This document shows, in pieces, positions 3,556-61,232 of a DNA stretch of 64,000 nucleotides. Made by a program: the position numbers and the translations under genes. The stretch comes from an uncultured virus (IMG/VR IMGVR_UViG_3300008012_000024). Taxonomy: Duplodnaviria; Heunggongvirae; Uroviricota; Caudoviricetes. Every line of letters begins with the position of its first letter. The stretch's first letter is position 1. The stretch covers positions 1 to 64,000 of IMG/VR virus record IMGVR_UViG_3300008012_000024, one strand, 5' to 3'. The notes under the pieces are model-generated. The model was not told the DNA's origin and ran no database searches. It saw nothing but the letters and a program-made list of their open reading frames with translations.

Positions 3556-3556
3556 T

Positions 3557-5005: not shown

Positions 5006-5008
5006 AAT

Positions 5009-5695: not shown

Positions 5696-5699
5696 TTTT

Positions 5700-37188: not shown

Positions 37189-37275
37189 TTACTTAAAGAT
37201 AAGCATATAATAAGTTGCCACAACCAGGAGGGTCAGGCAGACCCTCTCATATGACCACTTGAACTTTTTTTTCAT
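37189..37275 (-). CDS. 28-aa single-TM small protein (not in ORF track)
   Basis: MKKKFKWSYERVCLTLLVVATYYMLIFK; TGATG overlap with gp32 stop, ends at terminator. Confidence 0.55.
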   Translation of the reverse strand: MKKKFKWSYERVCLTLLVVATYYMLIFK

Positions 37276-44041: not shown

Positions 44042-44101
44042 ATTTTAAAAAACCTTACAGGTTAAAAATTTTGGCGAATTTTTTTCGGGGTTATTGGGAA
44101 A

Positions 44102-44461: not shown

Positions 44462-45048
44462 GAGCGATTTCCCCATTTAATATCAGGATACGCAGTAGAA
44501 ACAATATCTTTAGTGATATTGTACTTGGTTTGCAGTTTTTTATCTTTAATTAAGATTAAAATTTCTGCTTCCAAAGGATGTAAACCCCTAAGCATATCAA
44601 TGAAAAGAGTTTCTCTCCTCATAGAATTCATACCAGGATTTCCACCACGAAGAAAATTATAAAACTTACGAAATTCTTTACGAATGGTAGTTTGCCCCTG
44701 ATCATTCATGCCAAGTGAGTTACTACCAAGTTCTTCCATTTTTTTAACTGCATCACCAATTTTGCCACTCATATCACCACTAAAAGCATTTTGTTCACCA
44801 TTAGTAGCATAAGGAACAGGTCCTTCTGGAAGAAGACTGATTACACTCTCATCAAAATTCCAAATAAAAACTGCTTTAAGAGAATTATCTCCGTATTTTT
44901 GAAGAACCTCAACTTTTTTTGCTTTACTACGCTGTTTGGAAGCTAATTGTAAAACTTCAAAAGCAAAAGGATTTTTTGCAAGATCTGGAATAGGTTTAGA
45001 TGCTGCTTTTTTCCTAGTCGTCGTCTTCTTCTGATTGGTTGTCGTCAT
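44458..45048 (-). CDS. conserved T4-like hypothetical protein (DUF6433-like; start at MTTTNQ)
   Basis: WNFDESVISLLPEG.VPY, RRETLFI.ML.GLHP.EA. Confidence 0.8.
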   Translation of the reverse strand: MTTTNQKKTTTRKKAASKPIPDLAKNPFAFEVLQLASKQRSKAKKVEVLQKYGDNSLKAVFIWNFDESVISLLPEGPVPYATNGEQNAFSGDMSGKIGDAVKKMEELGSNSLGMNDQGQTTIRKEFRKFYNFLRGGNPGMNSMRRETLFIDMLRGLHPLEAEILILIKDKKLQTKYNITKDIVSTAYPDIKWGNRS

Positions 45049-45241
45049 AATAGTTTTCAAAATTAAATGCAATTACCTCATCGGGTATTAGGTTCCCGTT
45101 ACCATCAAACATTTCGGGATGAGGTCTTGGTACTTCCCGATAATTCATCATGTATTCTCTCGCGGTCCACCCAACAACAGTTCCTAGTATAAGAAACAAA
45201 ATAGTCAAAAATGATCCAAAAACTAAACTTACTGCTAACAT
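45014..45241 (-). CDS. small membrane protein
   Basis: N-terminal TM, HPEMFD.NGN motif. Confidence 0.75.
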   Translation of the reverse strand: MLAVSLVFGSFLTILFLILGTVVGWTAREYMMNYREVPRPHPEMFDGNGNLIPDEVIAFNFENYYDDNQSEEDDD

Positions 45242-45261
45242 TGTTCTTACCTCTTAGGAAA

Positions 45262-45450
45262 CTATTTTTCTTTTTTCTTTATATTTAAAGAAAATTCAAA
45301 ATAAAGATTAATTTCCCTTCTACGAAAATTTAATACTTTATTTGTAATAAAGTGTATAACGTTGGGTTTTTTCTTTTTGCCTCCGCGTAAAACAAATTCA
45401 ACTCCTCGGTTAATAGGAATCTTAGAATTATTTATATTGTTATTAGACAA
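45262..45450 (-). CDS. hypothetical protein
   Basis: INRGVE..LR...REI.L.F; coupled to glutaredoxin. Confidence 0.6.
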   Translation of the reverse strand: MSNNNINNSKIPINRGVEFVLRGGKKKKPNVIHFITNKVLNFRRREINLYFEFSLNIKKKEK

Positions 45451-45676
45451 ATTGTTTTTCTTTTAAAAATTTAATTGTATCTGTACATCCACCCAAGTAT
45501 TCATCTTCATAAATTACTTGAGGAAAAGTTGATTCACTTCCAAATTTAGAAATAAAATCATCCCTGGTAAAATCTTTTCCCAGAGTAAGTTCCTCATAAG
45601 AGTTACCTGTTAATTCTATCACTTGTTTAACTTTATAGCAATACTTACAATTTTTTCTAGTAAAAATTTTAAACAA
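45443..45676 (-). CDS. nrdC: glutaredoxin
   Basis: CKYC, TFPQV, LGGCTD; TTG start with GGAGG RBS. Confidence 0.9.
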   Translation of the reverse strand: MFKIFTRKNCKYCYKVKQVIELTGNSYEELTLGKDFTRDDFISKFGSESTFPQVIYEDEYLGGCTDTIKFLKEKQFV

Positions 45677-45694
45677 AATTAAATTCCTCCTTTT

Positions 45695-46516
45695 CTATAC
45701 TCCATCCTCATGCCAACATTCATTGTAACCATTTTTTTGATCATCATATGGGTATGACATAAGATCTTTTTTAGGCCATTTTAAATCAATACCTTTTTTA
45801 GGGAAAGATTTAAATAACCTTTTTGATAGATTAGTGCTAATCTCATGAGATTCATCCCATTGTTGACAATTATCATATAGATACTTATCTTGTTGGATTA
45901 GCATTATCTTGACACGATCATCAAAATTAGAACAATAATGTGCTCCAATATAAGTTTCAGATCTAGTAAAATATGGATAATATTTCCACAGATCATTCTT
46001 TGATATTTTTACCAGATCTGTAATGTTATATGTTTTTAATGGTATATCAAATAATTTATATAAATCTTCAGTTTTTCCCCAGAAAAGATGATCTCTGGGG
46101 TGGAATAGAAGATGTGGATATAATCCTGGTACAAATATACGATCTTTCTCTCTGTTCTCTATAAAAAATTCATACATATTGAGCATACTCTTATGATCAT
46201 ATAACTGATCGGTACGCATTTTTATAGAATACTCTGTTGTAGATTTTTTTATACCACTGAAAGAGGAGAAAATTTGAAGATTGACATTATCATCTCCAGT
46301 ATTTGTAGGTTTTTTGTTCGGTACTAATACAATTCTATCTACATTTTTATCAATAATATCTCTGAGGGATGATAAATCATCATCATCCCAACAGGATAAA
46401 ATTATATTATTAACGAAAGGAATATTTAAATAACTTTCTATTACATCATTGGTAAATTCATCATATTTTCCTTGCAGAATAATATCATGTTTTTCATACT
46501 CATTATTATTCCGCAT
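45695..46516 (-). CDS. WavE-like lipopolysaccharide synthesis protein
   Basis: IILQG, IILSCW, NVNLQI.SS..G, KMRTD, FHPRDHLFWG. Confidence 0.75.
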   Translation of the reverse strand: MRNNNEYEKHDIILQGKYDEFTNDVIESYLNIPFVNNIILSCWDDDDLSSLRDIIDKNVDRIVLVPNKKPTNTGDDNVNLQIFSSFSGIKKSTTEYSIKMRTDQLYDHKSMLNMYEFFIENREKDRIFVPGLYPHLLFHPRDHLFWGKTEDLYKLFDIPLKTYNITDLVKISKNDLWKYYPYFTRSETYIGAHYCSNFDDRVKIMLIQQDKYLYDNCQQWDESHEISTNLSKRLFKSFPKKGIDLKWPKKDLMSYPYDDQKNGYNECWHEDGV

Positions 46517-46518
46517 GA

Positions 46519-49500
46519 CTACTTTTTTTCGCGTTCAATATCATAGTGCTTCAAATTATCAACAATAAGATTATGATAATACGGAGTAAGATTATAGTTA
46601 TCAATCAAATCTAGAAAAATTTCTTTAGATTCTTCAACTTTACCCCAGTACCAACCAGAAGATGCTTTTTCAAAAAGTAAACCAAGTCTTCCAGGATATT
46701 CAACATCATGTGTTGTTTTTGGAGAATCAAAATCAGATAAAGTCAAACCCTGGCAGGCAAATTGATAACAGTGACTCCACTGCGATCTTTTCTCATGGAA
46801 TCTTGCAAGCAAAAAGTATGCTTCTGGTCTAGTTGGTTTTATACATAACGCTTGCTGCAGTAATGATTCTGCTGTACCATCTCTTGTTCCTTGTTTATCA
46901 TAACAATGATGGCACTTAATTATTGCTTCATATTGCATATCTTCACTTTCAAACCTTTCAGCGGCTCTCAAGAAATATGAAAGTGCTGGTGCAGTGTGCC
47001 CTTCTTTTTCATACCATATTCCAAGGTTGTAATTTTTTTGTGCATCCTCACAATCTAAAGAATATTCATACAATAACTGCTCTAACTCAGTCCTTTCCCT
47101 TCCAATACTTTTTTTTTCTTCTACAATTTCAGTATCTTTTTCGGAAGTTACAGAAAGCAGTGCGCCAAGTGAAACATTGTTATTTTTCCACCAATCTGTG
47201 ACAAATTTATATGTTTCAACATGATGTGCTTTGTTTTTATCAGATAATCCCTCTTTCCCATAAAAAGTAGAAGGATGATTTTGATCTTCAACAAAAAGAT
47301 TTATAGAATAAACTTTACCAAGTCCATAGAAAATTACATTTTCTGGCATTGGATAAAAATTGGAGTTTGGAATATTTAAAGTATAAGTATTATTATCAAA
47401 ATAATGATCAATTATTTTTTTAGCATACCCTCTGGTTAAAATATATGCGGTTACAGACCAATCATACATTGATCTATCACGCAATCTCACTTCTTCCTGA
47501 CCATCTCGTACACAGCAGAGTTGAACACATTCAGCATCTTCTGGAAGACTTTGAATAAATTCTGTCCAAGAAAAATTCCAATCATTAACAGTCTCAAGGC
47601 TTAGATCATCTTCACAAAAGAATGCATACTCTTCATCAGTTTCATCATACCACTTTTTAATCATCTTGATATGAGATACTACACATCCCTTTGTACCATC
47701 ATCAAGTATATGTAACTGCTCTCCTTCTAATTTATCATCAGATTCAGAAAATCTCTTGGAAATTACACCAACAGTTTTTTCTACACCACAACTAAAAAAT
47801 TGTTTATTAAGTTTATTTCTCCGTTCAACACTTTCCTCTAAACTTATATAGTAAACGCTAGGAAAGTTTACAAATTTTATTTTGTTTGGTATCTCTTTAC
47901 TTTGATTCAATTTAAATGCCATTTCTTTCCATTTATTAAGGACAATATTGTGTGAATTATGATGGTGAACATTTACATTATCATCTTCACCGTCAATTTG
48001 ATATGATGCTTTAAAGGAAATATCTTCTAAAAAGAGAGGAATTACATAAACTTCATCACTCAATCCAAAGATAATAGTTTCAATAACTGGTACAATAGCC
48101 CAGTCTGGTCTGTATTCTACATCGTGACATTTGGAATCAAGATGGAATACATCATCATAATAATATGTATCAATCAATTTTTGTGCATATTTTCTACTAA
48201 TTAAGTATGCACATCCAGACCAATCACTCCATTCTCTAGTTTTAAATTTAATATCTAAACCATACTCATATTCTCTAAGTAAACAAAGTTGAACACATTC
48301 CCATTGTGGAGGTAAAGAGTTAAAAAACTCTTCCCATGTAAAGTCCCAATATTTTACAGATTCTAAGGAGATATCATCTTCACAGAAAAAAGCATATTCC
48401 TCTTCAGTGTCATTCAACCATTCTTTAATGGCCTTTAAATGAGAAGTTACTGGACCTCTACTACCAATACTTAATCGATGTAAGTACCCACTTTGAATTT
48501 GATGCTCACTATCATCATATTTTTTAAATATATGAGGAGTTATATGATCTTCTAGTATACCATACTCTGAAAATATTTTATATAAATTTTCTCTCCTCTC
48601 TTCAGAATGTTCAACACTAATAAAATTAACTGGTGGAAGATTTTTTAATTTATTTTTATCCAGTTGATGTTGGTTATTATCAATAGATGCTGTGTAATAA
48701 CGACCACCTTCAGAAGAAACTATCCATTTAGTTTCACACTTAACGTATGCTCCAGATACTTCATCCACTTTAGCACGGTTAATCTGATTGTGTTTCATTG
48801 CTAAAACGTAATCAGTTTGCCATTCTAAATCATCACCACTATAACAACCAGAAAGATTTGCTCTTATAATATCTCTTATTTCTCTTTGCTCATAGGTTGA
48901 ACGAAAGTTTTCAAATCGTTTATTGTCTGGATGAGGCATGTGAATTAGATGATAATCAAAATCTAATTTCTTGTGCTCTAATCCATAAATCTCTAATCTT
49001 TTATAAATCTCATCATCTTCAAATGAGTAAAAATCTGAAAACGATTCGTTATATCCACCAATATTAATAAAATGTTCCTTTGAAACAAAAAGAAGACCTG
49101 TCAAATACCTATAGTATGAACTATAAGAATTGTAATAATCTTGTATTTGCTCAACACTCATCTTCATTTTATCAAATTTATGAAGACCACTCTCTTCATC
49201 ATAAAATTCTGGACTTTTTATAGAAGATTTTCCACTAACAAATGAATTTTCATCAATCTTATATTTGTTGAAAAAGGAATAATATGGACTCATTATATAA
49301 TCACAATCAACCTTAAGTATGTAATCTCCAGTCGCTTGTTGAGCAGCCAAGTTTAATGGTTGTGGTTGATTAAAATACTCAACATCATCTACACGAATGA
49401 TTTTAATCCTTTCGTCCAGTTGAGTTAGATTTTTTAATGGTTTGTCAGATTTCCAATCAACAATAATAATTTCTGATATTTCTGAGTAATTTAACCAAGA

Positions 49501-49563
49501 ATTTAATGAAACTCTTAATGCTTCATTTCTATTTTTACAAGCACATATTAATGAAATCTTCAT
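46519..49563 (-). CDS. multidomain glycosyltransferase: GT2/GT7-like, two GT25-like domains, TPR
   Basis: CKNR, KVDCD, GGYNE..EDD; 2x YISLE.S.ERR...SH.K.IK.W...FFCEDD; TPR C-terminus. Confidence 0.85.
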   Translation of the reverse strand: MKISLICACKNRNEALRVSLNSWLNYSEISEIIIVDWKSDKPLKNLTQLDERIKIIRVDDVEYFNQPQPLNLAAQQATGDYILKVDCDYIMSPYYSFFNKYKIDENSFVSGKSSIKSPEFYDEESGLHKFDKMKMSVEQIQDYYNSYSSYYRYLTGLLFVSKEHFINIGGYNESFSDFYSFEDDEIYKRLEIYGLEHKKLDFDYHLIHMPHPDNKRFENFRSTYEQREIRDIIRANLSGCYSGDDLEWQTDYVLAMKHNQINRAKVDEVSGAYVKCETKWIVSSEGGRYYTASIDNNQHQLDKNKLKNLPPVNFISVEHSEERRENLYKIFSEYGILEDHITPHIFKKYDDSEHQIQSGYLHRLSIGSRGPVTSHLKAIKEWLNDTEEEYAFFCEDDISLESVKYWDFTWEEFFNSLPPQWECVQLCLLREYEYGLDIKFKTREWSDWSGCAYLISRKYAQKLIDTYYYDDVFHLDSKCHDVEYRPDWAIVPVIETIIFGLSDEVYVIPLFLEDISFKASYQIDGEDDNVNVHHHNSHNIVLNKWKEMAFKLNQSKEIPNKIKFVNFPSVYYISLEESVERRNKLNKQFFSCGVEKTVGVISKRFSESDDKLEGEQLHILDDGTKGCVVSHIKMIKKWYDETDEEYAFFCEDDLSLETVNDWNFSWTEFIQSLPEDAECVQLCCVRDGQEEVRLRDRSMYDWSVTAYILTRGYAKKIIDHYFDNNTYTLNIPNSNFYPMPENVIFYGLGKVYSINLFVEDQNHPSTFYGKEGLSDKNKAHHVETYKFVTDWWKNNNVSLGALLSVTSEKDTEIVEEKKSIGRERTELEQLLYEYSLDCEDAQKNYNLGIWYEKEGHTAPALSYFLRAAERFESEDMQYEAIIKCHHCYDKQGTRDGTAESLLQQALCIKPTRPEAYFLLARFHEKRSQWSHCYQFACQGLTLSDFDSPKTTHDVEYPGRLGLLFEKASSGWYWGKVEESKEIFLDLIDNYNLTPYYHNLIVDNLKHYDIEREKK

Positions 49564-50039
49564 TCAGACAACTCTCTCCTATAATAATTACAATTATCTG
49601 TACAGATACCTTTTGTTGATAATATTCTATCGTATCTTTCTTCGTATTTATTGTAATAAGAAATGGACTCTGGTAGAACAATGATTGAGTTATTATATGG
49701 TATTTGTCCTACTAATACCCACCCAATACCCCTACTGGTTAAAGCATACCTATCATTTTCATGATAGAAGTAATGTAAATTCATGACCGTAGAAGAGCAG
49801 AACTCTAAGGATTCACGATCTTTACAGTGAATCCAGAGTCTTTCTCTATGCTTATAAAGCCACCCAAGTTTCAATGGATATTGAGGTTTATCATGTCCAA
49901 GAAAAAGTTGTTTATCTTTCGATCTCAAATCAATTTCTACGTCATATCCCATCGATAAGGCTTCATCAATGTAATCTGGACTATTTTCCCTTTCAGGATT
50001 AGGACCATCTACATTTCCCCTATGAGCAATGATAATCAT
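49560..50039 (-). CDS. short glycerophosphodiester phosphodiesterase-like protein
   Basis: IAHRGN...EN...DVEID...LGHD...WIHCK...GICTD. Confidence 0.8.
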   Translation of the reverse strand: MIIIAHRGNVDGPNPERENSPDYIDEALSMGYDVEIDLRSKDKQLFLGHDKPQYPLKLGWLYKHRERLWIHCKDRESLEFCSSTVMNLHYFYHENDRYALTSRGIGWVLVGQIPYNNSIIVLPESISYYNKYEERYDRILSTKGICTDNCNYYRRELSE

Positions 50040-50040
50040 A

Positions 50041-51279
50041 TCAAAACTCTAAAACCCATTCTGGAAGAGATCCACCACCAGTTTCATATCCCCACTTATC
50101 AATAGCAGCACGGAATTCCTCTCCAGGATTCTTATCAATCGCTTGTCGCATTGCTAAAGCACCAGAGAGAGTGCCACCAGGGTGTCCATGAACTGCACCA
50201 CCACAGTTTGCTAGGAAATCAGTTCCAAACTTCTCAGCAGTAGTGTTGACGATACCTGGATGCATACCACAACTGAGTGCTGGTAGGACATTTCTATGAT
50301 GCAAAGTATCCATCACGGTATGCAGTTCTGCTTCATCATCACTCAAATATCCACCCCACATACCAGCATGGATAGTATCAACACCACAGAGACCTGCAAG
50401 GTCACAAAGAACACTCCAATCGATACCAAAGTTATGACGCTTATCAGTCAGAATCTTATCTCCACTCTTCTGATAATGAACAAACATTGGAAGATCCATC
50501 TTCCTCACGGAATTGTAAACACCAAGTCCACTCCAGAAATTAATGTGAATACCATTACCACCATTATTTGCAACAAACTTTGCACGATCAAGGATAGTAT
50601 GGTGATCACCATTAATGCAGAAACAGTAAATTACTCCCCTACCACATTCATTAACAAGATTTGAAATAAGTTCTACACGATCTTCAAGACGGCAAAAAGA
50701 TGGATTGGAAAGAATCTCATCTTCTTTAATAAAATCTACTCCACCATCGAGAAGTTCTTTAACCATCTCCGAAAGAGTTTGTGGAGAGATTCCAGTTTTT
50801 GGTTTAACAATAGCACCAGAAAGTGGTTTATCGTAACGATTAACAAACCTACGGATACCATCAATACCATACTTAGGTCCCAAAAACTGTGCTTCAACAT
50901 CAGCAGGAAAATCAAGTTTTCTGAGTCTACATGTTTTGAAGACATCAATATCAAGTTGTCCACCCATTAACTGACACATCAGATGAGAAATACCATCACC
51001 TTCCCAATCAGTATTCACTTTAGGGAAACCAATCTTTACTTCACCAGAAGTCATGTTAGTTAATTTTTCTTCATCGTCGTAAATGACGCATGATGCAAGT
51101 TCAAAAAGATCATCACTTTCCCAACGATTACGAACTTTTGGATTACCCACACTTTGTCCAATTGCAAGTGCCCAAGCAGCATCTCGCAAGTTGCCTATAT
51201 TTTCATATGTTTCGATGTAAAATGTAGCAACAACACAACGATTTTTTTCTTGTTCTGTTAATTCTCTAAAAAATTTCAT
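50041..51279 (-). CDS. RuBisCO-like protein (form IV)
   Basis: GAIVKPKTG, GVDFIKEDE, DTIHAG, SCGMHPG, GGAVHGHP; lacks E60, N123, R295 and loop-6 K334 equivalents. Confidence 0.92.
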   Translation of the reverse strand: MKFFRELTEQEKNRCVVATFYIETYENIGNLRDAAWALAIGQSVGNPKVRNRWESDDLFELASCVIYDDEEKLTNMTSGEVKIGFPKVNTDWEGDGISHLMCQLMGGQLDIDVFKTCRLRKLDFPADVEAQFLGPKYGIDGIRRFVNRYDKPLSGAIVKPKTGISPQTLSEMVKELLDGGVDFIKEDEILSNPSFCRLEDRVELISNLVNECGRGVIYCFCINGDHHTILDRAKFVANNGGNGIHINFWSGLGVYNSVRKMDLPMFVHYQKSGDKILTDKRHNFGIDWSVLCDLAGLCGVDTIHAGMWGGYLSDDEAELHTVMDTLHHRNVLPALSCGMHPGIVNTTAEKFGTDFLANCGGAVHGHPGGTLSGALAMRQAIDKNPGEEFRAAIDKWGYETGGGSLPEWVLEF

Positions 51280-51950
51280 ACTTTAACCTCATTTTTTATA
51301 AAAACCAATATCTCATCACCAGCAAATCCATATGTTTTATTAGAACCATATGTCTTTACTTGAGTAATATTACAATAATACTTATCATTATTATATTGTT
51401 CAAGAAAATTTGCATATGATTGGATTGCGTAGTCAACGTCTTCAACTATAAGAATTCCTCCAGGATTTAAATACTTATGAACATTTGAAATTACTTTTAC
51501 CTGATCCCAAAACTCATGGCTGGCATCGTCTATAATAATATCAAATTTAGTACCTGTTTTTTCAAATGCTTCAAGAATTGATTGTTCATCCCTAACATTT
51601 ATATAATCATAATGAACGTTATGAAGATTATCATTTTTAGCAAGTTGGACAAAATCATATTGATAGCGAGTTTCTGTACAGTGTTCCAATTTACAATCCC
51701 AACCATATAGAGTAGCCTGCGAAAAATACTCTCTCCACATCTTCATAGATGCATTTTTATATATACCAATCTCACCAAACACAATGTCTTTATGTCTAAG
51801 ATTAGAAAATAAAAAATTATAAAAAGGAGTATAGGAATGACGCCCCATTTCATATACTAATGAAGATTTGTCTGTTTTATATTTTTCACCAATATGACAT
51901 AAATCAGTTGGAGATGTGAAACTATTGTAAAGTACTTGATTGAATTTCAT
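51276..51950 (-). CDS. class I SAM-dependent O-methyltransferase-like protein
   Basis: YKTDK, HSYTPFY, EIGI..AS.KMW.EYF, FDIIIDDASH, GGILIVED. Confidence 0.85.
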   Translation of the reverse strand: MKFNQVLYNSFTSPTDLCHIGEKYKTDKSSLVYEMGRHSYTPFYNFLFSNLRHKDIVFGEIGIYKNASMKMWREYFSQATLYGWDCKLEHCTETRYQYDFVQLAKNDNLHNVHYDYINVRDEQSILEAFEKTGTKFDIIIDDASHEFWDQVKVISNVHKYLNPGGILIVEDVDYAIQSYANFLEQYNNDKYYCNITQVKTYGSNKTYGFAGDEILVFIKNEVKV

Positions 51951-52273
51951 AATTTAACCTCAAATTTGTCTGATGGTATAGATGGTGTTTTTACACATAC
52001 TACTGTGCAGTCTTCCAAAAACACTGGATCTGCAACTTCATATCTATCTAGTACGAATACATCACCACTGTTTATTTCTTTATTTTGAATTATCATTTTT
52101 CCAGAAACTAGAACATTATATTCTATACCCTTTTTATGATAATGTGCAGGCCACTCTTCACCCTTTTTATGATTTAAAACTGCCACTTCAAAATCTTTTG
52201 TTCTAAAAATAGAGGGTTCAAAATCACCAATGATCCACCCTCTAGTGTAATCGGAAAGTTTAGTAATTTTCAT
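51947..52273 (-). CDS. cupin-fold protein
   Basis: RGWIIGDFEP, HYHK..EYN, VKTPS..DK. Confidence 0.75.
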   Translation of the reverse strand: MKITKLSDYTRGWIIGDFEPSIFRTKDFEVAVLNHKKGEEWPAHYHKKGIEYNVLVSGKMIIQNKEINSGDVFVLDRYEVADPVFLEDCTVVCVKTPSIPSDKFEVKL

Positions 52274-52982
52274 ATTTCATAAGAAAGGAATCTAAATCTT
52301 CTGGAACCCCAACTGGATTATGTTGCCAATTTGGAATATGATGAATACCAACTTTTAACTCCTTCTTTATCATATGATTGTAAGAAGGTCCAACATAAAA
52401 TTCACCATTAGGTGCTCTATCATCACATTCTATCATACTCTCAGTACTTTGTACAAAGTACTTACCCTTTCTCCAGTAATGAATACCATTTAAAGAAATG
52501 TCACTCAATACCTCCTTTTCTTTTATCAATTTAACAAAACCATTTTTATCAATTTTAGCATAACTATTTTTAGGAGTAGTTGTGCTATAAGTTACAACAA
52601 CACCATCATACTTATAATATCTAGCAGTTGTCAAGAAAAGATCAGAATCCCACCACATAATTTGATCACAATTGGCAATAACAAGTTCATCCTCATTATT
52701 AATATAATCTTTAAATAAAAGACAACTAGATGCAGGACCTTCGGTTGTTTCTTCTACACTGATTATTTTTGCATCGGGAAGAATGTTGTGAAGTAATGTG
52801 CAAACCTGATCATAATAACTATCCTTTCTGATTACAAAATGATATGTACCATTCATACCAAGAGACTCAATAGCTCTTTGTATCATTGGAACACCGTGTA
52901 TATCAATTAAAGGTTTTGGTATTTTGTAAGTATCTCTAGGAAATCTAGTTCCTTCACCCGCCATTGGTATTAAAATGTTCAT
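52260..52982 (-). CDS. sugar nucleotidyltransferase (BcbE-like GT-A fold)
   Basis: IPMAGEGTRF, PKPLI, T.GPA, IANCDQ, EK, GEFYV.P.YN, G.PEDL. Confidence 0.88.
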   Translation of the reverse strand: MNILIPMAGEGTRFPRDTYKIPKPLIDIHGVPMIQRAIESLGMNGTYHFVIRKDSYYDQVCTLLHNILPDAKIISVEETTEGPASSCLLFKDYINNEDELVIANCDQIMWWDSDLFLTTARYYKYDGVVVTYSTTTPKNSYAKIDKNGFVKLIKEKEVLSDISLNGIHYWRKGKYFVQSTESMIECDDRAPNGEFYVGPSYNHMIKKELKVGIHHIPNWQHNPVGVPEDLDSFLMKYENY

Positions 52983-53627
52983 TCACTTTACCTCAATAAA
53001 CTTATTGTATCTCTTTTTTCTAGCAAATCCAATTCCCCAATCTTGAGGACATGCATTTTCAATAACATCCCATCTAGTTTTGTCCAAATTATTAATAAAT
53101 TTATTTGGACCTGGATGACACGTTGTGTCATGTAAACCAACTATTCCATTCGGTGCTAACAATTTAGTATATTCCCAATCAGTCAATACTTGATTAATAC
53201 TATGCCATCCATCAATAAAAATGAAATCAAATTTTTTAATTCCCCAAAACTGGTCAAACATACCAACATTTTCATCAATATATGAACTATTGTTCTGAAT
53301 GGTATGAATGTTATTATCTGGATCCCTTATAAAAGACCTATCTTCAAGATCAAGACCAACGTATATAGTCTCATGTCTTTTATTTGAAGTTAATACATGA
53401 ACAAATGATTCTTCATCATTTCTAGCAATACCAATCTCAAGAATTGCTTTAGCATGATCTTTTACTTTTAAAAATTGTTCTAAAAGATTTGATCTATTAC
53501 ATTCAGTTACTTCTTTACAATTATCAGATCTTACATAATTTTTAAAAAAATCATTTTGCTCATAATCTAAATCATCATATTCAGTAAAAGTTCTGATATC
53601 ACAAACAAGATCTTTTTTCCATTTCAT
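52983..53627 (-). CDS. class I SAM-dependent methyltransferase
   Basis: ILEIG, FDFIFIDGWHS, GIVGLHDT. Confidence 0.85.
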   Translation of the reverse strand: MKWKKDLVCDIRTFTEYDDLDYEQNDFFKNYVRSDNCKEVTECNRSNLLEQFLKVKDHAKAILEIGIARNDEESFVHVLTSNKRHETIYVGLDLEDRSFIRDPDNNIHTIQNNSSYIDENVGMFDQFWGIKKFDFIFIDGWHSINQVLTDWEYTKLLAPNGIVGLHDTTCHPGPNKFINNLDKTRWDVIENACPQDWGIGFARKKRYNKFIEVK

Positions 53628-54256
53628 AATACTTCTCCAGGTTTTAGTTTAAAATAGTCAGGAAGATTAGTAAACCATTTATATTCCTCTCCCAATTTTT
53701 GTTCCAACAATTGTTTTATTTCTTCTGTTTCTTTTTCCCAACTTGTTTTTCTTTCCTTAAAATTAAGTTTAGGATGGTTTTTAGGGACTCCCCAATAATT
53801 TCTAATCTCTTCTTGAACTTTAATATCACCCAAAGACTCATACTTGGTGAATAAAAATTCATATTCACTATTGGGATTTTCAACATAACCCGTTAAGTGA
53901 GATTTATATTGAACCGCATCATAAGGATTTAGTAAGTATTCTTTAAGGGTTATTGTATTACCAACCTTAAAATAAGTTGGATCGCCACAACACCATTCTC
54001 TCCAATGAACCCATGTTTCACTAGGAAATCCTCTGCGGAAGGAAGCTAAAATATAGTCATAAGGATTACACATTAAATAATGAATTTTATGTCCATTCTT
54101 ATATTTTATATAATTATTAGAATATTCTATAGGCAATCCTTCTTTTTTAAATCTACTATGAACGCTATAAGTTGATCCATCTAATGTTGGTCCTTTTCCC
54201 AACCATCGTAATAAGTAATGTGTTGCAGTATTTCCTGGAGTTATTAATATGTTCAT
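53624..54256 (-). CDS. sulfotransferase-like P-loop protein
   Basis: PGNTATHYL, NPYD..AS..RR, KYESL. Confidence 0.5.
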   Translation of the reverse strand: MNILITPGNTATHYLLRWLGKGPTLDGSTYSVHSRFKKEGLPIEYSNNYIKYKNGHKIHYLMCNPYDYILASFRRGFPSETWVHWREWCCGDPTYFKVGNTITLKEYLLNPYDAVQYKSHLTGYVENPNSEYEFLFTKYESLGDIKVQEEIRNYWGVPKNHPKLNFKERKTSWEKETEEIKQLLEQKLGEEYKWFTNLPDYFKLKPGEVL

Positions 54257-54260
54257 TTAG

Positions 54261-55133
54261 TTAATAATTTATAATTTTTTTCACAATTTGTTTTGTTGTT
54301 AAATTGTTTTTTAGATGGGAAAAAAGATATTCATTTAAAGAATTATATTCTGGATGAATTTCTCCTTTTCTAGCATATTTATTAACCTCTCTGAATATCT
54401 CTTTAGGATAATCTAACATCACAAATGCAGGACATTCATCAATATCTGGAAAATATGGTACACACTTATTGGCAAGTATTTCAAGATGCCTCATACAATT
54501 CCATTGACTTTTTTTCCAAGTTATTCCATAATAAGATATTGCATAATCCCTATAATATGATTCTTCAGTAGTATAAACATACGTTTCTTTTTTTCCAGGA
54601 ATTATGTCAGCAAATACTTTTTCTTTTTTAGGAGTATGTTTAATTAGTTGTGACTCAGGTATACCAAAACTTATGGGATTTCCTGCTCCTATATTTTCTA
54701 ATTGACTCTTCCATATTATTCCATAAGGAAATATTCCAAAAGCGTGAGAATAATTCCAAGAATTATCTGATCCATCAATAAAATGAACTTTATCTTTAGA
54801 ATAGTATTTTCTAACAATATCAAGATAATCTAAACATCTCCTATTTGGAAATGACTCATGTGTGTATACACATCCGTATATAATAATATCATAAAACTTA
54901 GAACGTATTTTTTCAACTATTATTTCTGGAGATTCTACGTTTGGAACATAATCAAGTTTTCCAAACATAGTAAATCCTTTTCCATATAATTTAGATAGAT
55001 CAGAACTATTTTTAATCATATAAGAAGGATAATGAGTCTCATATACATCAAATCCACTATCAATTAATCCATGATAAACAGTATCTGCCTGATATTCTGG
55101 GTATGCAAAGTTATAGACGTATAAAATTTTCAT
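54261..55133 (-). CDS. putative glycosyltransferase (GT-B-like)
   Basis: YQAD..YHGL, FIDGSD, YY.DY..S.YGIT.KK..W.CMRHLEI.A..C.PYF. Confidence 0.65.
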   Translation of the reverse strand: MKILYVYNFAYPEYQADTVYHGLIDSGFDVYETHYPSYMIKNSSDLSKLYGKGFTMFGKLDYVPNVESPEIIVEKIRSKFYDIIIYGCVYTHESFPNRRCLDYLDIVRKYYSKDKVHFIDGSDNSWNYSHAFGIFPYGIIWKSQLENIGAGNPISFGIPESQLIKHTPKKEKVFADIIPGKKETYVYTTEESYYRDYAISYYGITWKKSQWNCMRHLEILANKCVPYFPDIDECPAFVMLDYPKEIFREVNKYARKGEIHPEYNSLNEYLFSHLKNNLTTKQIVKKIINY

Positions 55134-55909
55134 TAGTAAACGTGAGTTTCTGCGGAATAATGTTCACCATACCAGTATCTCCTAAAATCTTTTTTGTTAT
55201 TGATAATAACATTGAAAGGAAATCTATTAAGTTCTATTTGCATACTGTTCAAATAATCACGAAGAATAGATTCTGGATGATAATCAATGGTACCCATATT
55301 AGTGAGATTATTATATAAATCAGAATATATGTCCATCAATTGTGATGTACCTAATGCAAATTGATCATTAACTCCACCACACCAATCTTCACCTTTTGGA
55401 ATATTAATACAATCTGGTAACTTTTTCAAATCCAATTCTTTACCTTCAAAATCACTATCAAATCTCATCCGTATAACTCTATCAAAAACAATATTGTTTT
55501 CATTCTCATAATCTTTTTTTAATTGATTACTTTTCCAAATAGAGTACAACATACTTATGTAACCAATATCATGCCTTGGTTTAATACATGTATCTGGTAT
55601 AAAGGGATTGGTATCTAAACAATCATATATTTTTTGAAAATGATGTTTTTTACTTTCATAATCTTCAATGAGTAAAGTCTCATACTTGTATTGATTTTGA
55701 TCAATAATACCAAGATCAGTTTCTACAATGTTTTGTTTTTCCTTTAACTCTAAACCCTGTATCGTTGTCGTAAAATCTTCACGATCATATATCTTCCAAG
55801 TATGAATAAAAAGTTTTAGATCTTCATAATTTTTAGTTATATTCTCAATACTACGAACAGCAAATTCTGGATACCTGACAGCACCAGAAATACATATAGC
55901 GATTTTCAT
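55133..55909 (-). CDS. putative glycosyltransferase
   Basis: KIAICISG..R, FIHTW, SMLYS, FDRVIRMRFD, NDQFALG, HPE. Confidence 0.7.
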   Translation of the reverse strand: MKIAICISGAVRYPEFAVRSIENITKNYEDLKLFIHTWKIYDREDFTTTIQGLELKEKQNIVETDLGIIDQNQYKYETLLIEDYESKKHHFQKIYDCLDTNPFIPDTCIKPRHDIGYISMLYSIWKSNQLKKDYENENNIVFDRVIRMRFDSDFEGKELDLKKLPDCINIPKGEDWCGGVNDQFALGTSQLMDIYSDLYNNLTNMGTIDYHPESILRDYLNSMQIELNRFPFNVIINNKKDFRRYWYGEHYSAETHVY

Positions 55910-56907
55910 TATTCAAAAATGTAATTTTTAACGACTTGCTTGGGAACTCTCAACAAATATGCAGCATTATCCTGGAATCCAAATGTCATCAAGTAATCAT
56001 CACCGTACTCACACATTCCAACTGCAAATTCAATAGAACCACCTAAGAAAGAAAATCTTTTTGATACTTTAGTAATCTTCCAGTCTTTATCCCATACAAC
56101 AAATCTATGCCTGTATGTTCCATCCTTTCTTCCTGCAGGACTTTGATATAGGAATGTCTCATGATTCAAACAGAAACGTCTTTGATCATCCAATTTTAAA
56201 ACTTGCGATCCACCACGCAAATCAATACATCCCAAATCCTGCCATTCTGAGAGAGCAACTCTTTCAGTTTTATTTGTTTCCATATTATACTTAACTACTT
56301 CCGTTCCATTAGTCCACTTAATAAAATGAAACGGCATGTCTAGGACAGGCATCCAGTTTTTTTCACAATAAGAAGTCTTGTCACCCTGATCGTCACCAGG
56401 AACTGGAATTCTATATTGTTTTAATTCTTTAACACCATTTTCAGTAAACTCAATCTCAGACAACTCCATGCGTCCTTGACCATTATAAGTGGTATCTCTT
56501 CTTACACCACAAATATAAAGTTTACCATCCCACCTCATAATCCGAGCATCTTCCAATCCAACAAATTCCCATAATTCTTTATCAGGAAAATCTGAAGTAT
56601 CAATATGATGATAATATTTAATAGACATATCATCTGTCATTTCACACATAATATTTTTAGTGCGAAGACGTAAATCGTTTTCTGGATGAATATAAACTAA
56701 TGGTCCCCAATGATGTTCATACTTATTCAATTCAGAATGATACAATGTATAATTAATATTTCTAAGATTTACAATGATTTTTCCATTATCATTATAAATT
56801 GATGGGTTAGTTAGTGCTGGTCCTTTAAGATCTTCTGAAGGAATAATCAGTGGGTGTATAGATCCACCATTTTCTAAGGCAATCTTTACAAAATTTTCTT
56901 CACTCAT
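55909..56907 (-). CDS. five-bladed beta-propeller glycosidase/phosphorylase-like protein
   Basis: NPSI, GLEDARI, EKNWMP, LRGGS, IEFAVG, FGFQD. Confidence 0.75.
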   Translation of the reverse strand: MSEENFVKIALENGGSIHPLIIPSEDLKGPALTNPSIYNDNGKIIVNLRNINYTLYHSELNKYEHHWGPLVYIHPENDLRLRTKNIMCEMTDDMSIKYYHHIDTSDFPDKELWEFVGLEDARIMRWDGKLYICGVRRDTTYNGQGRMELSEIEFTENGVKELKQYRIPVPGDDQGDKTSYCEKNWMPVLDMPFHFIKWTNGTEVVKYNMETNKTERVALSEWQDLGCIDLRGGSQVLKLDDQRRFCLNHETFLYQSPAGRKDGTYRHRFVVWDKDWKITKVSKRFSFLGGSIEFAVGMCEYGDDYLMTFGFQDNAAYLLRVPKQVVKNYIFE

Positions 56908-56963
56908 ATTATTAAATCAACTGTTGATATTTATTTTGGAGTTATAAACTCTATTCTAGCACA

Positions 56964-58727
56964 TTAATATGGAATTGGGCACCAATAAACTTTATTTGAA
57001 CTAGATCCTATGAAATATATATTTCTCCCACGAACGTGAATTCCTCTGAGAGTAGTTTCTTGTTGCGTTACCTTAAAAGATTGCATAAATGTTAAACTAA
57101 CTCCAGTTAATCTCCAGGGGACACTAGTCTTATATTGTTGTATTTCATCAGTGCTATGTCCAGCCGTAAATAAGTATCGTCCATCTTCAGACCATGCAAT
57201 ACCATTTGTACTGCCTTCAACATTAGCATTATCATCTAATGCAATGCTTGAACCATCATAATTATAAGTAGTATCACCTTCTATTGTTCTTAGTCCATAC
57301 CACGGAGGATCAACCGTATACTGATATGCAATATTATTATCAATAGCCCACAACTTTGTTCCATCGTAACTATAACGGCAACCAAGTGGAGTATCAGCAC
57401 TCTGATTATTTGTAAACAAAGATGCTGCTATTAATCCATATCTTTCATTACCAACATGTGTAGATTCTTTTCCAGCATATTTCATTCTAAAAATTCTATC
57501 ATAGTCACCAGTTGTATAAAGGTCACCAACCCATAAAATATCATCAGATTGCCATCTAACACACGCTATGGTATAAGCATAGTAAGAATTATTCCCAGCA
57601 CTTTGTCTGTAATGATTCAGATCATACTTAGCATAATTAGAGCCCATACTAGTAATATCATAAGGTGTTGATAATTCACCAATATAAATTCCATCCATTC
57701 CATAACCACACCAGGCAATTACTGTACCATCAGAATTGAAATCAAATCCAGTTGGATTTGAATCAACTGCACTTGTTGTTCCAAGATGAGTTAAAGTACT
57801 ACTAATATCATAAGCAGTACTTAAACTAAATCTATCAAATACATCTCCCGTCATTCCAAGAACTAATAGATTAGATCCACTATTATAAAACTGAAAATCA
57901 TATGGACCTGTCTCCCAAGTCCCAAGATCAACACTATTACCCTCAGTAACAGTTGATGACACATCCCATGCAGTTGAAACTGAGAATTCAAATAAATCAT
58001 TATATCCATCACACAAAATCCAAAACTTTGTGCCGTCAGGTTTCCATCTTATAGATCTAGCAGTTCTATTCAGTGGACTTGTTGACATAGTGTAATAAGT
58101 TACACCCCCTGCTGTACTTATATCGTATGCAGTAGACAAAGTACGTTGAGCTACTCTATCATTCGGGGCAACAAAATAAACTTTAGTTCCATCATTATTA
58201 AATTCAAATGAGTATGTAGAAGCATCTGATACTCCAGTTGCAGTTGCTAAATTATCATATTTTTTATATGGAATGGCACCGTAAGATATTGTTGATAAAT
58301 CCCACGGAGTTGACATATTAAATAAAATTATACCATCTTTATCATGTCCACACAGAATCAAATATTGACCATCAGGTGAAATATCAAACCCATATGAATT
58401 ACCTTCATATTGTACATGAGACCATTCACGAACATATGATGCTGAACTTGGATCGAAAGGTGTTGATAATGAATATTGTCTAATGTAATCTGAACTAGTA
58501 GCCAAGAACATTTTAGTTCCATCGGGGCTAACGTGAACATCATACCAAGCTGTTCGACCAGTAACAACTGGATTGAAATATCTATTCACAGTAACTGCGG
58601 AAAGAGATGAAGATGCTAGATCTGCACTAACCTTTTTCCGAAGATATTCATTTTGACTTACCATACCACTAGGAATTGCGGCTTTCCTTACCGTTCCAGT
58701 CAATAAACTGCTACTATTAATAGACAT
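56964..58727 (-). CDS. beta-propeller virion/fibre-tip protein with LSTxWD repeats
   Basis: Repeated F..DGTK.....QY.LST.WD.ST. Confidence 0.75.
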   Translation of the reverse strand: MSINSSSLLTGTVRKAAIPSGMVSQNEYLRKKVSADLASSSLSAVTVNRYFNPVVTGRTAWYDVHVSPDGTKMFLATSSDYIRQYSLSTPFDPSSASYVREWSHVQYEGNSYGFDISPDGQYLILCGHDKDGIILFNMSTPWDLSTISYGAIPYKKYDNLATATGVSDASTYSFEFNNDGTKVYFVAPNDRVAQRTLSTAYDISTAGGVTYYTMSTSPLNRTARSIRWKPDGTKFWILCDGYNDLFEFSVSTAWDVSSTVTEGNSVDLGTWETGPYDFQFYNSGSNLLVLGMTGDVFDRFSLSTAYDISSTLTHLGTTSAVDSNPTGFDFNSDGTVIAWCGYGMDGIYIGELSTPYDITSMGSNYAKYDLNHYRQSAGNNSYYAYTIACVRWQSDDILWVGDLYTTGDYDRIFRMKYAGKESTHVGNERYGLIAASLFTNNQSADTPLGCRYSYDGTKLWAIDNNIAYQYTVDPPWYGLRTIEGDTTYNYDGSSIALDDNANVEGSTNGIAWSEDGRYLFTAGHSTDEIQQYKTSVPWRLTGVSLTFMQSFKVTQQETTLRGIHVRGRNIYFIGSSSNKVYWCPIPY

Positions 58728-61229: not shown

Positions 61230-61232
61230 AAT

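Follow-up and report, generated by a model that had tools for sequence, protein, structure and literature searches.

What would a phage do with a RuBisCO-like protein (RLP) encoded among genes for glycan synthesis? The question was raised by a 64,000-nucleotide stretch of an uncultured virus (IMG/VR record IMGVR_UViG_3300008012_000024), referred to here as the window. It contains a cassette of tightly packed genes, all on the (-) strand, for a nucleotidyltransferase (NT), a cupin, a methyltransferase, the intact RLP, a truncated GDPD-like protein and a multidomain glycosyltransferase (Table 1). According to the ORF coordinates, neighbouring genes overlapped by 14, 4, 4 and 4 nt and the remaining junctions were gaps of 0-2 nt; these coordinates and the Pfam matches agreed with the gene content and the abutting or overlapping packing given in the original prediction, made from the sequence alone. 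T4-like genes were found on both flanks of the cassette, the island lying among virion and tail genes, and an identical cassette was detected in four further viral contigs differing in length, indicating that it is phage-borne and not the product of a host-phage chimera. The cassette is part of a glycan island in a T4-like cyanomyovirus, a phage with a host range of photosynthetic cyanobacteria.

Table 1. Genes of the glycan island in the window
Feature	Coordinates	Strand	Evidence
RuBisCO-like protein (RLP), 412 aa, P0001	50041..51279	-	PF00016, 146.8 bits (cut-off 30.1)
Nucleotidyltransferase (NT), 240 aa, P0124, sugar-1-phosphate NT type	52260..52982	-	PF00483, 34.7 bits (cut-off 21.2)
Small monocupin, 108 aa, P0123	51947..52273	-	Cupin_7 weak, 20.4 < 27; AF2/Foldseek fold matches
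SAM methyltransferase, 224 aa, between cupin and RLP	51276..51950	-	PF13847, 32.8 bits
Truncated GDPD/PLC-like phosphodiesterase-fold protein (mini-GDPD), 159 aa, P0122	49560..50039	-	Family profile and AF2 fold
Multidomain glycosyltransferase, 1014 aa	46519..49563	-	GT2 32.6, Glyco_transf_7C 39.5, GT25 28.7 bits
WavE-like LPS-synthesis protein, 273 aa	45695..46516	-	PF07507, 53 bits
Methyltransf_24 (TylF-like) methyltransferase, 214 aa	52983..53627	-	PF13578, 30.1 bits
Unannotated protein, 210 aa	53624..54256	-	ORF
Unannotated protein, 290 aa (g290)	54261..55133	-	Homologue fused to RLP in P0127
DUF7796 protein, 258 aa, island member	55133..55909	-	PF25072, 42 bits
Unannotated protein, 332 aa	55909..56907	-	ORF

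The 210-, 290- and 332-aa proteins of the island gave no family match in Pfam, NCBIfam or PHROG. Among the viral loci compared, the 210-aa protein was present only in near-identical contigs, and homologues of the 332-aa protein were found with 53-82% identity. For g290, the ESM Atlas yielded a weak GT1-like lead and nothing stronger. The evidence from RNA libraries consisted of contigs alone, for which carry-over DNA is a possible source.

The RLP scored under every NCBIfam equivalog cut-off (form III, 201 < 497; MtnW, 163 < 409; OiaX, 156 < 700), and a second MtnW model gave 122 bits (cut-off 513.6). In the phylogenetic tree, whose references included neither a true Bacillus-type MtnW nor Chlorobium IV-Photo, 61 viral and cellular rows formed a single branch (SH-aLRT 100, stem 0.66) apart from forms I-III, OiaX-type and MtnW-like/deep RLPs, bearing out the separation from MtnW-type enzymes on which the original prediction depended. 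Residues were mapped on an alignment of 97 rows, 61 of them from the RLP clade. The metal-binding and enolisation core (K175, K177, K201, D203 and E204) was retained in 61/61 clade rows and H327 in 53/61, and S379, G381, G403 and G404 of the glycine loops were also kept, all as predicted for K175, K177, the K-E-D-E motif, H327 and the loops. The carboxylation residues were replaced in 61/61 clade rows, E60 and N123 by G, H294 by Q and K334 by Y, while the R295 position was K in 55/61. The absence of N123 and the Y at K334 had thus been read correctly, but two other residue calls were wrong and the E60 call was one residue off: the supposedly retained H294 is H268, aligned to H292; the Y assigned to R295 is Y269, aligned to I293; and the Q assigned to E60 is the residue following G41, the aligned counterpart of E60. 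The clade-invariant residues differing from the reference rows were mostly polar. With the metal/enolisation core retained and the carboxylation residues lost, the RLP is predicted from its sequence to be an enzyme that cannot fix CO2; in the tree it is a member of a distinct non-carboxylating form-IV-type clade linked to the NT.

RLPs in phages had been described before, and the novelty implied by the original prediction was overstated. A set covering phages (some Myoviridae, IMG/VR) and Beckwithbacteria includes about 80 'Form IV-like' RLPs from phages, with their function given as 'unclear' (Jaffe, Castelle, Dupont and Banfield, Mol Biol Evol 2019; PMC6389311). Like the window RLP, these proteins are phage-borne, form-IV-related and devoid of key catalytic residues. 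Among the IV-like phage entries in the alignment headers of that work are scaffolds with the IMG ids 3300000116 and 3300005805, which are also the ids of clade loci L008 and L042. The words nucleotidyl, glycosyl, neighbor and synteny are all absent from its main text, and its Supplementary Fig. S1 shows 'genomic context' (PMC6389311). The NT linkage, the fusions and the members from SAR11, Legionella and DPANN appear to go beyond that work. The published literature searched contained no account of an RLP linked to sugar activation.

The linkage was evaluated in 80 viral and 40 cellular loci, in which a gene was counted when located within 1.5 kb of the RLP and, for the NT, also on the same strand. 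An NT was linked to the RLP in 76/80 viral loci (65/67 of those with flanks of at least 1.5 kb) and in 33/40 cellular loci (26/29 with such flanks), a near-universal RLP-NT adjacency in support of the original prediction. Shuffled gene orders were observed across the loci (NCR, NCRP, PNR, RN, PRN, RCN and RNC). An RLP was present in 49 of the 51 viral loci whose NT has at least 50% identity to the window NT. The best solved relative of the NT family profile was 4evw (E 1.1e-36), to which no function is assigned, with GDP-mannose, RmlA and GlmU-type enzymes next; the likeness to sugar-1-phosphate NTs covered approximately 170 residues. Distant NTs were fused to a beta-phosphoglucomutase-family HAD in 22 loci and to a bona fide RibB domain in three loci and in phage S-SKS1 (ribB 188.1 >= 177.45). 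The NT family appears to be a module fed by sugar-phosphate enzymes. HAD and RLP occurred together in L076, L190, L209 and L219, and the Pelagibacter genome L085 carried a HAD-NT 5.9 kb away from the RLP; the two are not clean alternatives as NT partners.

Covalent linkage was also detected. Two metagenomic proteins, P0125 and P0126, were RLP-NT-cupin fusions, with E-values of 8e-34 and 1e-23 for the NT part and 2.5e-37 and 2e-30 for the cupin part. In P0127 the RLP was fused to a homologue of g290, residues 396-553 showing 35% identity to the C-terminal half of g290 (E 7e-24). Clade RLPs with an NT, adjacent or fused, were seen in phages, SAR11, Legionella and tiny archaea (DPANN).

The other cassette members were linked less uniformly. 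Foldseek matched the AF2 model of the cupin (pLDDT 97.1) to 168 cupins at E <= 1e-3, among them archaeal cupin phosphomannose isomerases and KdgF. In its metal motif, H-x-H-x4-E-x6-G, the residues H44, E51 and G58 were invariant and H46 was conserved in at least 90%. The cupin lay within 1.5 kb of the RLP in 67/80 viral loci and was present in 9/40 cellular loci, being absent from most of these. The 159-aa protein had no Pfam match, and the earlier description 'phosphodiesterase-like' held only at the level of profile and fold: the profile of the mini-GDPD family (46 members) matched solved GDPDs (E 1.3e-5), and the top nine Foldseek matches of its AF2 model (pLDDT 96.2) were all GDPDs (E 1.7e-3 to 5e-3). 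The GDPD assignment of this truncated protein is hence weak at the sequence level. Invariant residues of the family were H6, R7, E35, D37, H49, H71, K73 and D96. Mini-GDPD genes were located within 1.5 kb of the RLP in 53/80 viral and 14/40 cellular loci and were absent from many. The SAM methyltransferase (PF13847) between cupin and RLP is a variable insert, found at this distance in only 8/80 viral loci. Methyltransf_24 was within 1.5 kb in 22/80 viral loci and within 6 kb in nine more; in L013 it formed a fusion with the mini-GDPD. The RLP neighbours in 12 cellular loci were surface-glycan genes, comprising GT2/4/9/17/25/61, Wzy_C ligases, SDR epimerases, DegT, LicD, Bac_transf, GtrA and GDPD.

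Among characterised relatives, MtnW/YkrW (2,3-diketo-5-methylthiopentyl-1-phosphate enolase) has the fold, K175, K201, D203 and E204 in common with the RLP; both are non-carboxylating and enolase-type, and a single phosphate is probably bound at the P1 glycine loops. In contrast, K177 is retained in the RLP clade and replaced in the MtnW-like/deep rows, the two form separate branches, and neither the window nor the 130 ORFs scanned in 12 cellular loci contained an mtn gene. OiaX (3-oxo-isoapionate-4-phosphate decarboxylase) and the apiose-pathway RLPs are form IV enzymes of phosphorylated sugar acids and share the form-IV side of the tree with the clade (SH-aLRT 95), but the RLP reached only 156 bits in the OiaX model. 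Their neighbours, four-carbon acid-sugar kinases and aldo/keto reductases, are catabolic, unlike the glycan context here. Identity between the RLP and 358 plasmid-borne RLP/RuBisCO records did not exceed 33%. The cultured cyanophages S-SKS1 (NT-RibB), S-PRM1 and B3 (both HAD-NT) carry the same NT family (33-41% identity) in a similar glycan island, often with a mini-GDPD; in place of the RLP, however, the feeder is a DHBP synthase domain or a beta-phosphoglucomutase-family HAD. A tblastn search found no RLP in any of 50,697 phage records, including these three.

The best reading, to which we give a moderately better than even chance, is a biosynthetic RLP feeding an NDP-activated sugar pathway, the product of which is tailored onto a surface glycan; the RLP probably takes part in making an unusual activated sugar that goes into that glycan. 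It would be an active Mg2+/carbamate-dependent enolase- or isomerase-type enzyme without carboxylation activity, sharing one pathway with the adjacent NT and, where present, the metal cupin, which is likely to be an isomerase or epimerase. A mono-phosphorylated keto-sugar may be converted into an unusual NDP-activated sugar or sugar-like alcohol phosphate, the RLP presumably acting ahead of the NT, although linkage and fusion do not fix the order of steps. Neighbouring methyltransferases and glycosyltransferases would then tailor the activated sugar and install it on the putative target, a surface glycan, and the presence of a truncated GDPD-like protein may mean that a substituent is attached by a phosphodiester bond. 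For the cyanophage, this would amount to an auxiliary module, expressed during infection, that remodels glycans. The core of the original prediction, a biosynthetic non-carboxylating RLP coupled to nucleotide activation, was thus supported by the NT adjacency, the fusions, the glycan-locus neighbours and the separate clade, with host LPS, another surface glycan or virion proteins as candidate targets. Several observations count against the best reading: the RLP reactions known so far end in an open-chain ketose with a primary phosphate at C1, and the NT is of the sugar-1-phosphate type; HAD and RLP co-occur in some loci; and the cupin and the mini-GDPD are often missing.

Alternatively, the NT could act first, producing an NDP-sugar from a host sugar-1-phosphate, with RLP and cupin then rearranging the nucleotide-bound sugar while the P1 glycine loops hold the diphosphate. 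The NT profile agrees with such an order, small cupins acting on NDP-keto-sugars exist, the cupin follows the NT in the fusions, and the loop-6 change of K334 to Y could open the site. We nevertheless regard it as unlikely, as we know of no RuBisCO-family enzyme acting on a nucleotide-linked substrate, domain order does not give reaction order, and RibB, the alternative fusion partner of the NT, uses a free pentulose phosphate. It is quite improbable that phage DNA or virion proteins, instead of the host surface glycan, are the acceptors of the activated product. T4-like phages do glycosylate their own DNA from NDP-sugars and the island sits among virion and tail genes, but in cells the same cassette occurs in loci of the O-antigen, LPS and capsule type, together with Wzy_C, LicD, Bac_transf and GtrA, and the island transferases belong to LPS-type families (GT25, WavE and GT2).

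Very improbable is a role as an auxiliary metabolic gene for salvage or catabolism, independent of the NT and glycan genes, with the RLP as a methionine-salvage-like enolase or isomerase and the cupin as an acireductone-dioxygenase analogue. The RLPs characterised under NCBIfam names (MtnW, OiaX) are indeed catabolic or salvage enzymes, methionine salvage likewise combines an RLP with a HAD phosphatase and a cupin dioxygenase, and HAD domains recur in the NT module. Against this stand the low scores in both MtnW models, the separate clade, the lack of mtn genes in the ORFs scanned and the RLP-NT fusion, which fits salvage poorly; moreover, the mostly polar clade-specific residues do not suggest a methylthio pocket. 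A true CO2-fixing RuBisCO boosting host carbon fixation, to which membership in the RuBisCO large-subunit superfamily and the photosynthetic hosts might point, is hardly credible, being contradicted by the loss of E60, N123, H294 and K334 throughout the clade and by scores far under the form I, II and III cut-offs; small-subunit, PRK and carboxysome genes were not seen among the window proteins scanned either. As regards the remaining annotated island member, DUF7796 was also found in the DPANN RLP locus L106, with weak matches in the B3 and S-SKS1 islands.

The RuBisCO-like protein (RLP) of the window was assigned to the RuBisCO large-subunit superfamily, as it scored 146.8 bits against the catalytic-barrel family PF00016 (gathering cut-off 30.1) and matched 96 distinct RuBisCO/RLP sequences in PDB at E<=1e-10. 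The scores were below the NCBIfam cut-offs for form III (201 < 497.45), form I (190 < 438) and form II (105 < 489), and also below the equivalog cut-offs for MtnW (NF007095, 162.9 < 409; TIGR03332, 121.9 < 513.6) and OiaX (156.4 < 700). The protein was aligned in 97 rows, which were 61 non-redundant members of its clade and references labelled by NCBIfam (8 form I, 2 form II, 14 form III, 1 OiaX, 4 OiaX-like, 4 deep RLPs, 1 MtnW-like and 2 form-I-like RLPs), with 55 rows at least 88% identical to a retained row and two duplicate loci left out. When positions were mapped via form I reference motifs, K175, K177, K201, D203 and E204 were each conserved in all 61 clade rows. In the window's RLP, K175 corresponds to K159, the carbamylatable K201 to K185, and the Mg ligands D203 and E204 to D187 and E188. 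S379, G381 and G403/G404 were also kept in the clade, as was H327 in 53 of the 61 rows. The catalytic set of carboxylating RuBisCO was incomplete: E60, N123, H294 and K334 were replaced throughout the 61 rows, by G41, G107, Q270 and Y311 in the window's protein. Further replacements were N/P for T65/W66, E for D202 and C for G380 (both 61/61), as well as K for R295 and D for H298 (55/61 each). This pattern indicated that the enolisation and metal-binding core is intact and strictly selected, while those required to add CO2 and to cleave the product have been lost. The original prediction had reported H294 as kept and R295 as replaced by Y, but both calls came from a two-residue shift, as H268 aligns with H292 and Y269 with I293; apart from these two residues, the observation was real.

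In the maximum-likelihood tree, all 61 clade rows formed one branch (SH-aLRT 100, stem 0.66), which grouped with the OiaX-type and MtnW-like/deep RLP clades (SH-aLRT 95) apart from forms I/III (98), with form II as the outgroup. The RLP was therefore placed neither within the branch of forms I/III nor with the outgroup, where the carboxylating forms are located. Membership in the OiaX group was not seen either, the OiaX clade and the window's clade being separate with SH-aLRT 100 each. The clade was separate from the MtnW-like row (L122) and the four deep RLP rows, in a tree that contained neither sequences passing the MtnW cut-off, such as true Bacillus-type MtnW, nor Chlorobium IV-Photo sequences. 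The window's clade may correspond to the IV-GOS clade of Tabita.

The 18 proteins of the gene island around the RLP were searched by tblastn against 120 loci (80 viral and 40 cellular). A homologue of the neighbouring nucleotidyltransferase (NT) was located within 1.5 kb of the RLP on the same strand in 76 of the 80 viral loci and in 33 of the 40 cellular loci, corresponding to 65/67 and 26/29, respectively, when at least 1.5 kb was available on both sides. Among the seven cellular misses, L085 and L112 have an adjoining NT recognised by Pfam, L102 has an NT 162 bp away on the opposite strand, L094, L120 and L121 are short or end in the gene, and L122 is the MtnW-like locus outside the clade. 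The cupin was present within 1.5 kb in 67/80 viral and 9/40 cellular loci, and g159, a truncated GDPD-like protein (mini-GDPD), in 53/80 viral loci (with 14 more within 6 kb) and 14/40 cellular loci. A Methyltransf_24 gene was within 1.5 kb of the RLP in 22 of the 80 viral loci, and the methyltransferase located between the cupin and the RLP in the window was a rare insert (8/80). The gene order was shuffled with adjacency retained, as NCR, NCRP, PNR, RN, PRN, RCN and RNC (N, NT; C, cupin; R, RLP; P, mini-GDPD), a pattern that usually points to functional coupling and not to synteny passed on by descent.

A search for longer RLP-containing proteins identified three metagenomic fusions. P0125 (813 aa) and P0126 (817 aa) combined RLP, NT and cupin in one chain (NT, E 8e-34 and 1e-23; cupin, E 2.5e-37 and 2e-30) and were different sequences, 58% and 55% identical to the window's RLP. 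P0127 (724 aa) joined the RLP to a homologue of the island protein g290 (E 7e-24); g290 is probably another member of the pathway. Each fusion was represented by a single metagenomic sequence, so that a small chance of a sequencing artefact has to be allowed for. A 706-aa ORF that had appeared as a fusion in Azospirillum (L111) was rejected, as it matched neither PF00016 nor any other Pfam family and the actual RLP ORF there is 415 aa; the long ORF was taken to be a frame artefact, perhaps caused by high G+C content.

The NT was recognised as a sugar-phosphate nucleotidyltransferase by PF00483 (34.7 bits against a cut-off of 21.2), and G9, G11 and R13 of its N-terminal G-x-G-x-R loop were invariant in 36 sequences. 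The best solved relative of the family profile was 4evw, a structural-genomics 'nucleoside-diphosphate-sugar pyrophosphorylase' (E 1.1e-36), followed by sugar-1-phosphate enzymes of the GDP-mannose, RmlA, GlmU and HddC types over approximately 170 residues; IspD, PntC, IPCT, MurU and LicC matched at the N-terminal loop only. Within 50,697 phage records, cultured cyanophages without the RLP carried NT homologues of 30-41% identity. In S-PRM1 and B3 the NT was fused behind a HAD domain of the beta-phosphoglucomutase family, and in S-SKS1 it preceded, in the same chain, a DHBP-synthase (RibB) domain with a score above the ribB cut-off (188.1 vs 177.45). The latter fusion lies in a phage glycan island (L164:5001-6428, SWZG_00042) and was also found in L226-L228. 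It suggests that the compound activated with a nucleotide may be DHBP or another 4-carbon ketose phosphate related to it; the literature search found no paper on DHBP synthase in cyanophages.

The partners of the NT were surveyed in 80 of the 162 viral NT loci. The RLP accompanied 49 of the 51 NTs at least 50% identical to that of the window, the exceptions being one incomplete locus and L213, which had the cupin and mini-GDPD without the RLP. The 29 more distant NTs were HAD-fused in 22 cases and RibB-fused in three, while three were accompanied by the RLP and one by none of the three. The mini-GDPD was found with modules of the RLP type as well as of the HAD type. A plain replacement of the RLP by HAD or RibB was too simple a view, as four viral loci carried both HAD and RLP (L076, in which a HAD-NT fusion is beside the cupin and RLP, and L190, L209 and L219). 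The HAD, RibB and RLP partners thus indicate an NT family fed by Mg-dependent sugar-phosphate enzymes. A second NT paralogue, 27% identical to the window's NT, was present in SAR11 group 2 and DPANN loci (L104:7219-7959 and homologues in L090-L108) in addition to the NT beside the RLP, and could correspond to two activation steps or two donors.

The AF2 model of the cupin (pLDDT 97.1) gave 168 PDB matches at E<=1e-3 (probability 1.00), although the Pfam score alone was below the cut-off (20.4 < 27), and the sequence conserved cupin motif 1 as H44-x-H46-x4-E51-x6-G58. The nearest folds belonged to small cupins that bind a metal, among them KdgF and the cupin-type phosphomannose isomerases of archaea, and a role of the modelled protein as isomerase or epimerase is plausible. 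Single-sequence scans with Pfam, NCBIfam and PHROG gave nothing for g159 or for the island proteins g210, g290 and g332. For g290, phmmer against PDB found no match, and the ESM Atlas yielded no more than clusters named 'hypothetical' and a weak lead to GT1-like proteins. The window's g159 comprises 159 aa compared with the 244 positions of the GDPD model (PF03009), and a Pfam GDPD match was obtained for only 3 of 46 members of its family (best E 0.033). The family profile matched GDPD structures across the catalytic motif (E 1.3e-5 and 1.5e-5), and the top nine Foldseek matches of the AF2 model (pLDDT 96.2) were all GDPDs (TMq 0.37-0.62). The catalytic residues of GDPDs are an N-terminal H-R, E-x-D and H-D. 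H6, R7, E35, D37 and H49 were invariant in the family, together with H71, K73 and D96. From the profile and fold matches, g159 was identified as a truncated GDPD/PLC-like protein of 159 aa instead of approximately 240 aa. A 386-aa fusion of Methyltransf_24 and mini-GDPD was also found (L013:9265-10425), which connects methyltransferase and phosphodiesterase-like protein through a shared step or substrate.

The genes discussed here lie in an island, a run of overlapping or abutting ORFs between a DNA-metabolism block and further virion genes. The annotated ORFs are, in order of transcription, a beta-propeller protein, g332, a DUF7796 protein, g290, g210, a Methyltransf_24 enzyme, NT, cupin, a Methyltransf_31 enzyme, RLP, g159, a 1014-aa GT2/GT7C/GT25 glycosyltransferase and a WavE-like protein. 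The parent virus record is 74,106 bases with an estimated completeness of 37%. The window also encodes proteins of the baseplate and tail tube as well as collagen-like tail fibres of very large size, and its gp32 was 86-88% identical to the homologues of Synechococcus phage S-SKS1 and Prochlorococcus phages P-SSM2 and P-SSM5. This identity and the T4-like genes identified the phage as a T4-like cyanomyovirus.

Coordinates of features in the window
Feature	Position	Strand	Length (aa)	Remark
Three proteins with RCC1-like repeats	2188-9203			
Tail-fibre protein	9205-12678		1157	Many collagen-like repeat matches
Tail-fibre protein	13047-21761		2904	Many collagen-like repeat matches
gp32	37275-38225			T4-like gene
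PhoH	40832-41590			T4-like gene
ThyX	41872-42510			T4-like gene
Stretch compared with RNA-library contigs	44100-58800			Runs X1 and X2
Gene island	45695-58727	minus		
g159 (mini-GDPD)	49560-50039	minus	159	
RLP	50041-51279	minus	412	
Cupin	51947-52273	minus	108	
NT	52260-52982	minus	240	
g290	54261-55133	minus	290	
Ferrochelatase-like (phrog_2954) and 2OG-Fe(II) oxygenase (phrog_61) genes	60609-61853			Adjoining, just upstream of island; typical cyanophage auxiliary genes

A neighbourhood created by the assembly of host and phage DNA would have undermined the original prediction. The same 18 island genes were found in the viral contigs L004, L005 and L045 at 98-100% protein identity, and L003 carried the part of the island that fits on the contig. 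These four contigs are 33-111 kb and all differ in size from the window's record, and this recurrence makes a host-phage chimera unlikely. The G+C content of the island (0.28-0.36) showed no break from the rest of the window (0.30-0.40). The blastn search of the cassette against phage records gave only five short matches, every one outside the RLP. By tblastn, no match to the RLP was obtained in the 50,697 phage records, and the protein is therefore missing from every cultured phage of this set; PHROGs contained no family for it.

A protein database search found 2643 RLP relatives at E<=0.001 among 7134 candidates. In IMG/VR, 242 stretches encoded a relative, of which 80 were kept as the viral loci, and the 40 cellular loci came from a set of species-representative genomes. 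The carriers included a complete Pelagibacter chromosome and SAR11 single-cell genomes, MAGs of Woese-, Pace-, Micr- and Nanoarchaeia, Verrucomicrobia, Elusimicrobia, Azospirillum oleiclasticum, Turneriella, three Legionella species, Tatlockia, Francisellaceae, Balneola and Sphingobacteriales; no cyanobacterium was among the 40 loci. The phage-type NT-cupin-RLP-miniGDPD cassette was also seen on a 4.6-kb contig of a 'Methanobacteriota' MAG (L083) and a 3.3-kb contig of a 'Crocinitomicaceae' MAG (L084), with RLPs 85% and 67% identical to that of the window, and L083 was nested inside the viral clade in the tree. Both are probably viral contigs mis-binned into MAGs.

A Pfam scan of the RLP surroundings in 12 cellular loci, covering 130 ORFs, showed that the neighbours were genes of glycan loci, such as GT9 heptosyltransferase, GT1/4, GT2, GT17, GT25 and GT61, two Wzy_C O-antigen ligases, SDR epimerases/dehydratases and a DegT aminotransferase. 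Bac_transf, GtrA, GDPD, DUF7796 and DUF4422 proteins, a carbamoyltransferase and radical-SAM enzymes were also present, and LicD was divergently adjacent in Legionella nautarum. No gene for methionine salvage or the Calvin cycle was seen among these ORFs.

The original prediction had assigned the RLP to the biosynthesis of an unusual sugar or polyol phosphate that is nucleotide-activated and transferred. Comparative genomics, namely the linkage, the fusions, the glycan loci and the residues, supported this predicted role well at the genomic level. An enolisation core without carboxylation residues, the obligate coupling to the NT with occasional fusion to NT and cupin, and the glycan-locus context favour the following scheme. 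The RLP would enolise or isomerise a mono-phosphorylated keto-sugar, as suggested by the retained glycine loops of the P1 site and the changed P2 residues R295 and H298. The cupin would act as isomerase or epimerase, the NT, working either before or after the RLP, would form an NDP derivative, and the methyltransferases and glycosyltransferases would tailor and transfer the activated unit. The reactions of RibB and of RuBisCO-type enzymes have the same beginning, a pentulose phosphate held by the metal as its enediolate, and the simplest guess for the RLP substrate is accordingly a keto-sugar monophosphate. The open-chain primary phosphate expected here differs from the substrate of a sugar-1-phosphate-like NT, and a mutase step (by the HAD domain where present) may bridge the two. 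More speculatively, the GDPD-like protein and the LicD and GDPD neighbours hint that the unit might be attached by a phosphodiester, as with phosphocholine or ribitol phosphate.

We put forward, as a tentative and on balance rather doubtful proposal, that the clade rearranges a pentulose or hexulose phosphate in a reaction not described before, the product of which is nucleotide-activated and phosphodiester-linked onto cell-surface glycans, that this is shared by abundant marine cyanophages, SAR11, DPANN archaea and Legionella, and that the phages re-coat the infected cell, for example against superinfection. RuBisCO-like proteins are a textbook example of how the relatives of a CO2-fixing enzyme can diverge in function, and to our knowledge every function assigned to them is salvage or catabolism. 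If the proposal is true, the RuBisCO fold would here have its first anabolic role, in the building of glycans. The clade is widespread, and is locked to, and at times fused with, a sugar-activating enzyme in surface-glycan loci; its carriers include SAR11 and some of the commonest viruses of the ocean. The hypothesis is testable in vitro with three small soluble proteins or one natural fusion, and such a test would establish both a reaction new to RLPs and a new activated sugar. The hypothesis is also relevant to the remodelling of host surfaces by cyanophages and to hypervariable glycan islands, which are thought to govern phage-host recognition.

RLPs on phages are already known. Jaffe et al. 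2019 (PMC6389311) described a non-redundant set of approximately 80 RLPs, named 'Form IV-like', from Beckwithbacteria and putative phages (some of them Myoviridae), and called their function 'unclear'. The terms nucleotidyl, glycosyl, neighbor and synteny are all absent from the main text of that paper, and part of the genomic context may already be drawn in its supplementary figure. Its IV-like sequence headers include phage scaffolds from two of six IMG ids tried, shared with our loci L008 and L042, a correspondence of headers and not of residues; the two clades are probably the same. The GOS paper mentions new groups of RuBisCO homologues in ocean metagenomes. Our literature search found nothing tying RuBisCO-like proteins to nucleotidyltransferase, to glycosyltransferase/SAR11 or to viral auxiliary metabolism, and nothing on function under IV-GOS. 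What is new is that the RLP is coupled to sugar activation, that it occurs in fusions, and that it extends to SAR11, Legionella and DPANN.

Contigs of four metatranscriptome runs from four studies matched parts of the island, among them the genes for RLP, cupin, NT and methyltransferase, with DNA carry-over being possible. At least 99% likeness was found for 19 of 29 pieces in run X1 and 15 of 23 in run X2, which shows presence in the RNA libraries only and not transcription, the uncovered parts being uninformative. The contigs of X1 and X2 that were identical to pieces of the island came from freshwater- as well as marine-labelled runs, and the phage or a near-identical strain may occur in brackish or estuarine water.
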